Shown piece by piece: positions 15,001 to 18,000 of a stretch of DNA of 64,000 bases. Position 1 is the first letter of the stretch. Every line of letters begins with the position of its first letter. Source of the stretch: Escherichia coli (lineage in GTDB: Bacteria > Pseudomonadota > Gammaproteobacteria > Enterobacterales > Enterobacteriaceae). Made by a program: the position numbers. The stretch lies in the NCBI RefSeq assembly GCF_001677475.2, contig NZ_CP015229.1; one strand, 5' to 3'.

Positions 15001-18000
15001 TCAGTTTTTTCAATTTCTTATCTTCTCCTTAGGACGGCTGTGAAGCCAGTGCGTCTTGCAGATACTGAGGTAAGGCAAAAGCTGCCGTATGGATTGCCGG
15101 ATTGTAATAACGGCATTTCAGGCCAGAAGCGAGAAAACGCGCCTGAATAATTTCGGTTGAGAGATGGCGTAAGGCGTCGTTATCTGTCGCCCATGCAAAG
15201 GTCATGATGCCGCCGTAATAGGTCGGGATCGCCGCCTGATAAAAGCCAACATCGCTGAAGTAATGGCTGAGTTTGCGATGACTGTCGATAGCCTCTTCCT
15301 GCTGTAAAAAGCAGACGCCGTTTTGTGCGACGAAGATACCGCCAGGATTCAGGCAACGTTTGCAGCCTTCATAAAATGCTGAGGTGAACAGACTTTCGCC
15401 GGGGCCGATAGGATCGGTGCAGTCGGAGATAATGACATCAAAGGTCTGGCTGGTTTGATTCACGAAATTGACGCCATCGTCGATCACCAGCTTAAAGCGC
15501 GGATCGTCGTAGCTACCGGCGTTATGGTTGGGCAGATACTGACGGCAGAACGACACGACACCCGCATCGATTTCCACCATCGTGATTGACTCAACATTTT
15601 TGTGTCGGGTCACTTCGCGCAGCATGGCACCGTCGCCGCCGCCGATAATCAGCACATGTTTCGCGTGACCGTGGGCCAGTAGCGGAACATGGGTCATCAT
15701 CTCATGATAGATAAACTCGTCGCGCTCGGTGGTTTGTACTACGCCATCCAGCGCCATTACGCGGCCAAATGCGGCGTTCTCAAAAATGATCAGATCCTGG
15801 TGATCGGTCTTTTCATGATACAGAACGTTATCTACCGCAAAGTACTGCCCAAACTGGTCGTGTAGCGTTTCATGCCACTGTTTTTTTTCGGCCATGGGTT
15901 GATACCTCCTTTGTTAACACCCGTAAAAAAAGGGCGCAACATAATAGCTAACATTGACCGCGGATGCACGGTCAATATTTCTACAAAAAGGTATCAGGGA
16001 TTATTTGACGTAGGCAAGCAGGCTTAAGGAATCGCGAGCCAGGGCTTTGCACTTTTTAGCGACGGGAATGCCAATGCCGCTGAGATCGCGGTAGCTGTCT
16101 TCACCGAGAGCTTTCATGTCGAAGGTGTCGTAGTTGCTGAGATCCCACTGGTTTTGCTGGGCGAAAAAGACCAGTGCGCGACGAATTTGCCCGTTAGGTA
16201 AGTTCTGGTAACCACAATCGTTCTTCAGAAAGACAAAAACTGCCGTTAAATCGGCCATATCTTCGGCTTCAGACTCGCTGAGCGCGTAACTGTTTGCGCA
16301 AACGGCCATCAGGCTGCCGAATAACACTGTTCTGAAAAACGTCTTCATTGCTTCTACCAGGGGCTTAAAGAAGATAAACGTTAGCACACTGTGAGCGAGG
16401 CGACGACCATTATTGTCGATTAAATTGTGTCTGCGGCTTGACCTTCCCGTAAGGGGAAGGACTATGCTCAACGTTTGATTTTGTTTCGCCTGCTTAAGAA
16501 TAAGGAAATAACTATGCAACGTCGTGATTTCTTGAAATATTCCGTCGCGCTGGGTGTGGCTTCAGCCTTGCCACTGTGGAGCCGCGCAGTATTTGCGGCG
16601 GAACGCCCAACGTTACCGATCCCTGATTTGCTCACGACCGATGCCCGTAATCGCATTCAGTTAACTATTGGCGCAGGTCAGTCTACCTTTGGCGAGAAAA
16701 CTGCAACTACCTGGGGCTATAACGGCAATCTGCTGGGGCCGGCGGTGAAATTACAGCGCGGCAAAGCGGTAACGGTTGATATCTATAACCAACTGACGGA
16801 AGAGACGACGTTGCACTGGCACGGGCTGGAAGTGCCGGGTGAAGTCGACGGCGGCCCGCAGGGAATTATTCCGCCAGGTGGCAAGCGCTCGGTGACGTTG
16901 AACGTTGATCAACCTGCCGCTACCTGCTGGTTCCATCCACATCAACATGGCAAGACCGGGCGACAGGTGGCGATGGGGCTGGCTGGTCTGGTGGTGATTG
17001 AAGATGACGAGATCCTGAAATTAATGCTGCCAAAACAGTGGGGTATTGATGATGTCCCGGTGATTGTTCAGGATAAAAAATTTAACGCTGACGGGCAGAT
17101 TGATTATCAACTGGATGTGATGACCGCCGCCGTGGGCTGGTTTGGCGATACGCTGCTGACCAACGGTGAAATCTACCCGCAACACGCTGCTCCGCGTGGT
17201 TGGCTGCGCCTGCGTTTGCTCAATGGCTGTAACGCCCGCTCGCTCAATTTCGCCACCAGCGACAATCGCCCGCTTTATGTGATTGCCAGCGACGGTGGTC
17301 TGCTACCTGAACCGGTGAAGGTGAGCGAGCTGCCGGTGCTGATGGGCGAGCGTTTTGAAGTGCTGGTGGAGGTTAACGACAACAAACCGTTTGACCTGGT
17401 GACGCTGCCGGTCAGCCAGATGGGGATGGCGATTGCGCCGTTTGACAAGCCGCATCCGGTAATGCGGATTCAGCCGATTGCTATTAGTGCCTCCGGTGCT
17501 TTGCCAGACACATTAAGTAGCCTGCCTGCGTTACCTTCGCTGGAAGGGCTGACGGTACGCAAGCTGCAACTTTCTATGGACCCGATGCTTGATATGATGG
17601 GTATGCAGATGCTAATGGAGAAATATGGCGATCAGGCGATGGCCGGAATGGATCACAGCCAGATGATGGGCCATATGGGGCACGACAATATGAATCATAT
17701 GAACCACGGCGGGAAGTTCGATTTCCACCATGCCAATAAAATCAACGGTCAGGCGTTTGATATGAACAAGCCGATGTTTGCGGCGGCGAAAGGGCAGTAC
17801 GAGCGTTGGGTTATTTCTGGCGTGGGTGACATGATGCTGCATCCGTTCCATATCCACGGCCCGCAGTTCCGTATCTTGTCAGAAAATGGCAAACCGCCAG
17901 CGGCTCATCGCGCGGGCTGGAAAGATACCGTTAAGGTAGAAGGCAATGTCAGTGAAGTGCTGGTGAAGTTTAATCACGACGCACCGAAAGAACATGCTTA

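Follow-up and report, generated by a model that had tools for sequence, protein, structure and literature searches.

A CueR-type promoter upstream of cueO in an Escherichia coli chromosome is identical to that of K-12

The region upstream of cueO in this Escherichia coli genome raises the question whether it still carries the copper-responsive, MerR-type promoter of K-12 and how far copper control of the multicopper oxidase can be read from it. The window, which is the whole stretch of 64 kb that was analyzed, is a segment of the E. coli chromosome with the gene order pdhR-aceEF-lpd-yacH-acnB-yacL-speDE-yacC-cueO-gcd-hpt-can onward. Within it, cueO extends on the plus strand from 16514 to 18064 (ATG to the end of the stop codon) and encodes an intact multicopper oxidase of 516 amino acids, which was assigned by the NCBIfam CueO equivalog model (976 bits at a cutoff of 525) and has a twin-arginine signal at its N-terminus (MQRRDFLK...). 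The divergent neighbor yacC is located on the minus strand (16001-16348), as indicated by the NCBIfam YacC equivalog model and the annotation of a K-12-like genome, and the intergenic region between both genes (16349-16513) holds the promoter.

Reading of the sequence from 16200 to 16700 revealed a -35 hexamer TTGACC (16438-16443), which is the same in K-12 and in the copA promoter, and a -10 hexamer TATGCT (16463-16468), both on the plus strand and separated by the 19-bp spacer TTCCCGTAAGGGGAAGGAC (16444-16462, plus strand), which is 2 bp above the sigma-70 optimum. The positions of both hexamers and the spacer are exactly those given in an earlier note on this DNA, which had also placed a perfect dyad CCTTCCC-N5-GGGAAGG inside the spacer. 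The inverted repeat is indeed perfect, with 5 nt between the left arm CCTTCCC (16442-16448) and the right arm GGGAAGG (16454-16460), but the CueR operator (16442-16460, centre 16451, without strand) does not lie wholly in the spacer, as its left arm shares its first two bases, CC, with the end of the -35 hexamer. The promoter points toward a copper-homeostasis gene, cueO, whose ATG follows 45 bp past the -10 on the same strand.

The exact dyad is single in the 64-kb window, with a chance expectation of 0.13 for the pattern with up to two mismatches, and the -35/N19/-10 pattern has likewise one exact match (chance expectation 0.24 with up to one mismatch). The only other match to the dyad pattern is a CueR-box-like site with two mismatches (TCTTCGCAAGTTGGGAAGG, 48829-48847) within an ORF of 747 amino acids (47224-49467), which is probably a product of chance, given an expectation of 0.13 per window with this number of mismatches. 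We also observed a 14-nt direct repeat with 79% identity, a short family of two copies, of which GGGAAGGACTATGC (16454-16467) covers the right half-site and the -10 and GGAAATAACTATGC (16504-16517) the ribosome-binding site and ATG of cueO; this repeat is likely due to chance.

A comparison with the copA and cueO promoters, as proposed in the earlier note, revealed the same register and half-sites for copA and complete identity for K-12 cueO. In the K-12-like genome, the copA promoter reads TTGACC-ttccccttgctggaaggtt-TAACCT and shares with the cueO promoter the -35 TTGACC, the 19-bp spacer, the half-sites CCTTCC and GGAAGG in register and the same regulator (PMC8169799). The two promoters differ in the dyad centre, which is CCTTGCT in copA and CGTAAGG in cueO, in the length of the arms (6 bp in copA, 7 bp in cueO) and in the -10 (TAACCT versus TATGCT), and the gene downstream is a P-type ATPase at copA, whereas it is an oxidase at cueO. 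The published CueR signal is ACCTTCCC-(5)-TGGAAGGT with a required spacer of 19 bp, and the yacC-yacK (cueO) divergon is listed among those bearing a CueR site (PMC1526738). The cueO dyad of the window fits this signal, but the outermost A/T pair is not kept (A at 16441, A at 16461). In a wider frame, a dyad between -35 and -10, a spacer of 19-20 bp and activation by DNA distortion are also known from MerR/PmerT (Tn21, Tn501), ZntR/PzntA, HmrR, CadR and PbrR (PMC1526738, PMC8169799). These other metal-responsive promoters of the MerR family differ in half-sites and in the metals recognized, with a spacer of 20 bp in the case of ZntR, whereas the cueO site belongs to the CueR/HmrR signal class.

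The sequence from 16393 through the ATG of cueO shows no difference to the K-12-like genome and to MG1655. Compared with PcueO of K-12 (the yacK promoter), the promoter is without any difference, the flanking genes yacC and cueO are the same, and the only substitution in the intergenic region is located at 16392 (T versus C), 46 bp upstream of the -35. The divergence from K-12 amounts to 2.5% in speE, 2.3% in yacC and 3.1% in cueO, compared with 1 of 165 positions in the intergenic region and 0 of 31 in the promoter. The low divergence of the promoter region would agree with purifying selection, but the 31 bp taken alone give no significant result, with zero differences versus about 0.9 expected at the local divergence, and conservation within the species was dropped as evidence of selection because it is too weak. 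Of 5424 complete E. coli genomes, 5069 carry the 60-bp core (16425-16484) with 100% identity and, judged from these sequences, an intact promoter is the default state in the species. For the surrounding 8 kb (14000-22000), which has the standard gene order, 97.8% is the highest identity to any of the 5426 complete genomes of E. coli in RefSeq; therefore, the lineage of the window is not represented in the complete RefSeq set. A stretch of 2751 bp (15914-18664) matches a contig assembled from run SRR3929499 with 100% identity. A natural case of a non-intact cueO promoter was found in E. coli ES4 (NZ_CM184348.1), in which an IS4-like ISVsa5 with an IS10-type end (CTGAGAGATCC) is inserted at 1549/1550, corresponding to 16473/16474 of the window. 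This insertion is located directly after the -10 at the position of the start site and parts the CueR promoter from cueO.

With MG1655 as proxy, the transcription start could be placed at 16474 on the plus strand, as Cappable-seq identified the main plus strand start at position 137043 with a score of 6.37 (PMC4782308 supplementary file 1) and the sequence is identical. This position is 6 nt past the -10 and results in a 5' UTR of about 40 nt. The mapped nucleotide is a T, which is unusual, and the position may be off by one base. The earlier note had named a start far from the element as evidence against its reading; in MG1655, the distance to the -10 is only 6 nt (PMC4782308), and the reading is not refuted by this check. 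The same data set contains a second, weaker plus strand start at 137002 with a score of 1.80 (PMC4782308), corresponding to 16433 of the window, 5 nt upstream of the -35. The sequence TTAAAT (16420-16425) could be the -10 for this start, and CueR bound downstream would stand in the path of transcription from 16433.

Taken together, the identity to K-12, the register shared with copA, the published CueR signal and the Cappable-seq start bear out the assignment to CueR in the earlier note, and we are almost certain that the element is the chromosomal E. coli PcueO, a MerR-type sigma-70 promoter under control of the Cu(I)/Ag(I)/Au(I) sensor CueR; none of the observations speaks directly against this assignment. 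Following the literature for K-12, a CueR dimer would bind the dyad at 16442-16460, between the hexamers and overlapping the -35. With hexamers 19 bp apart, RNA polymerase would be unable to engage both of them properly on relaxed DNA, and metal-free CueR would hold the promoter off. Cu(I)-CueR would then kink and undertwist the spacer, which would bring -35 and -10 into register, and transcription from about 16474 would lead to CueO as a Tat-exported periplasmic cuprous oxidase. In cryo-EM structures of CueR with RNA polymerase, the 19-bp spacer is bent by CueR and sigma-70 can thereby reach both the -35 and the -10; cueO appears there as a CueR target (PMC8169799). A PcueO-lacZ fusion is induced by copper, PcopA and PcueO are described as the sole target promoters of CueR in E. 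coli, and deletion of both abolished the CueR-DNA FRET signal (PMC9396075). CueR binding and the Cu(I)-dependent switch from repression to activation have been described for the identical sequence of K-12 and BL21 (PMC9396075, PMC8169799).

With its statement that the sequence confirms copper-inducible control of the multicopper oxidase in this strain, the earlier note goes too far, as this control follows from identity to K-12 and cueR is located outside the window. In the study of Outten and co-workers from 2000, copper induction was reportedly lost in a cueR deletion of K-12. We infer that the same switch would operate in the present strain, where it needs a functional cueR elsewhere in the genome. 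CueR is a protein of 135 amino acids, and C112 and C120 are its metal-binding cysteines near the C-terminus. The cueO promoter is part of the textbook CueR-cueO system, which is already known and does not surprise a specialist. For annotation, this means that cueO keeps the standard CueR promoter responsive to copper, silver and gold, and that the Cue part of copper tolerance is probably under the same regulation as in K-12.

To see the site across species, the pattern TTGACCTTCC-N7-GGAAGG was searched in about 100,000 species genomes, which resulted in at least 120 loci with at least 124 sites. As this pattern fixes the -35 and the half-sites, only the free positions (the centre, the 19-bp register and the -10) count as independent evidence. 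Among the matches listed, an A at position 2 of the -10 at exactly 19 bp was found in 118 of 124 sites, and TAnnnT at 19 bp in 59 of 124, compared with 0-3 at each other spacing from 17 to 29. Again among the matches listed, 86 of the 124 sites are located directly upstream of and co-oriented with ORFs that are CopA-like (59), MerR/CueR-like (18) or CueO-like (9). When six cueO orthologues were compared in a footprint, the promoter/operator block, CTTGACCTTCCC..(A/T)AGGGGAAGG with the -10 at 19 bp, was the only conserved part and the flanks were unalignable. The orthologues compared are from E. albertii, Citrobacter werkmanii, Yersinia artesiana, Pantoea sp. IMH and Rahnella bruchi; these loci were collected by the pattern and the fixed positions carry no weight. 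Among the free positions, C at position 11 and AGG at positions 15-17 are invariant, and the -10 is TATGCT in Citrobacter and Yersinia, TATCCT in E. albertii, GATGCT in Pantoea and TAGGCT in Rahnella.

The same box, TTGACCTTCC-N7-GGAAGG with TAnnnT at 19 bp, is also carried by genomes of Clostridia (Oscillospiraceae, Lachnospiraceae, Faecalibacterium) at 17 of the loci listed. Here it precedes proteins of 211-223 amino acids with a MerR_1 domain, at least some of which have hydrophobic C-terminal segments, as well as genes for HlyD-family proteins and ABC transporters. Because the box in Clostridia fronts MerR regulators and efflux genes that do not look copper-related, the box alone is no proof of copper specificity outside Proteobacteria, where boxes of the CueR type may lack this specificity.

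It is conceivable that the promoter is intact but not copper-regulated in the present strain, with a cueR that is missing, mutated or rewired and cueO expressed at a low basal level. A tblastn search gave no match to cueR or copA anywhere in the 64-kb window, both genes being about 377 kb away from the cueO region in the K-12-like genome, and the lineage is divergent, with at best 97.8% identity over 8 kb to the 5426 complete E. coli genomes. However, E. coli in general carries cueR on its chromosome. Furthermore, operator and promoter are unchanged compared with K-12 while the nearby coding DNA has diverged by 2.3-3.1%, as continued use would give, and cueO is intact with 43 synonymous versus five non-synonymous codon changes. 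We consider a loss of copper control through cueR very unlikely, although it is the one reservation that still carries weight, and assume that CueR is present in this strain.

Even smaller is the probability that the dyad arose as a palindrome by chance or folds in a transcript as a terminator or attenuator hairpin and that the hexamers are chance matches, which we regard as negligible. The dyad could fold as a hairpin with a stem of 7 bp and a loop of 5 nt, and a generic scan for sigma-70 promoters and terminators from 15800 to 16800 called no promoter; the latter is explained by the scanner, which takes only spacers of 16-18 bp, whereas the site has 19 bp. The same scan called no terminator, the dyad is not followed by a T-run and precedes the mapped start, which leaves it outside the PcueO transcript, and the divergent orientation of yacC leaves nothing to terminate. 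The hairpin or terminator reading was excluded on these grounds, and a chance origin is opposed by the expectation of only 0.13 such dyads per window and by a register that is conserved across genera and phyla. Equally improbable, to the point that we hardly reckon with it, is a site used mainly by a regulator other than CueR, either CusR/HprR or a second MerR paralogue like GolS of Salmonella. Cross-talk between Cus and Cue appears in published transcriptomes (PMC10920338), and other MerR proteins use CueR-like boxes in other taxa, but the half-sites are those of CueR (PMC1526738) and PcueO is described as one of its only two target promoters in E. coli (PMC9396075). The CusR/HprR box, CATTACAAAATTGTAATG (PMC9302797), has no match in the whole window at up to three mismatches, and a CusR/HprR site was excluded as this box is absent.

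The product of the regulated gene is identical to K-12 CueO at 511 of 516 residues, and the five replacements that accompany the synonymous codon changes are G61E, S191N, A219E, G391D and T450P. The last of these (codon 450, 17861-17863) directly follows the copper-ligand motif HPFHIHG (H443-P-F-H446-I-H448-G). If proline 450 alters the geometry or activity of the copper site, the intact CueR promoter would drive a functionally altered oxidase, but we consider it improbable that regulation has been fully conserved while the regulated enzyme has changed through T450P. Residue 450 is a T in the orthologues of E. albertii, Citrobacter, Yersinia and Rahnella and an A in that of Pantoea. Exactly the CueO protein of the window has been deposited for E. 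coli as ANO87279.1, among other accessions, and it is therefore a natural rare allele.
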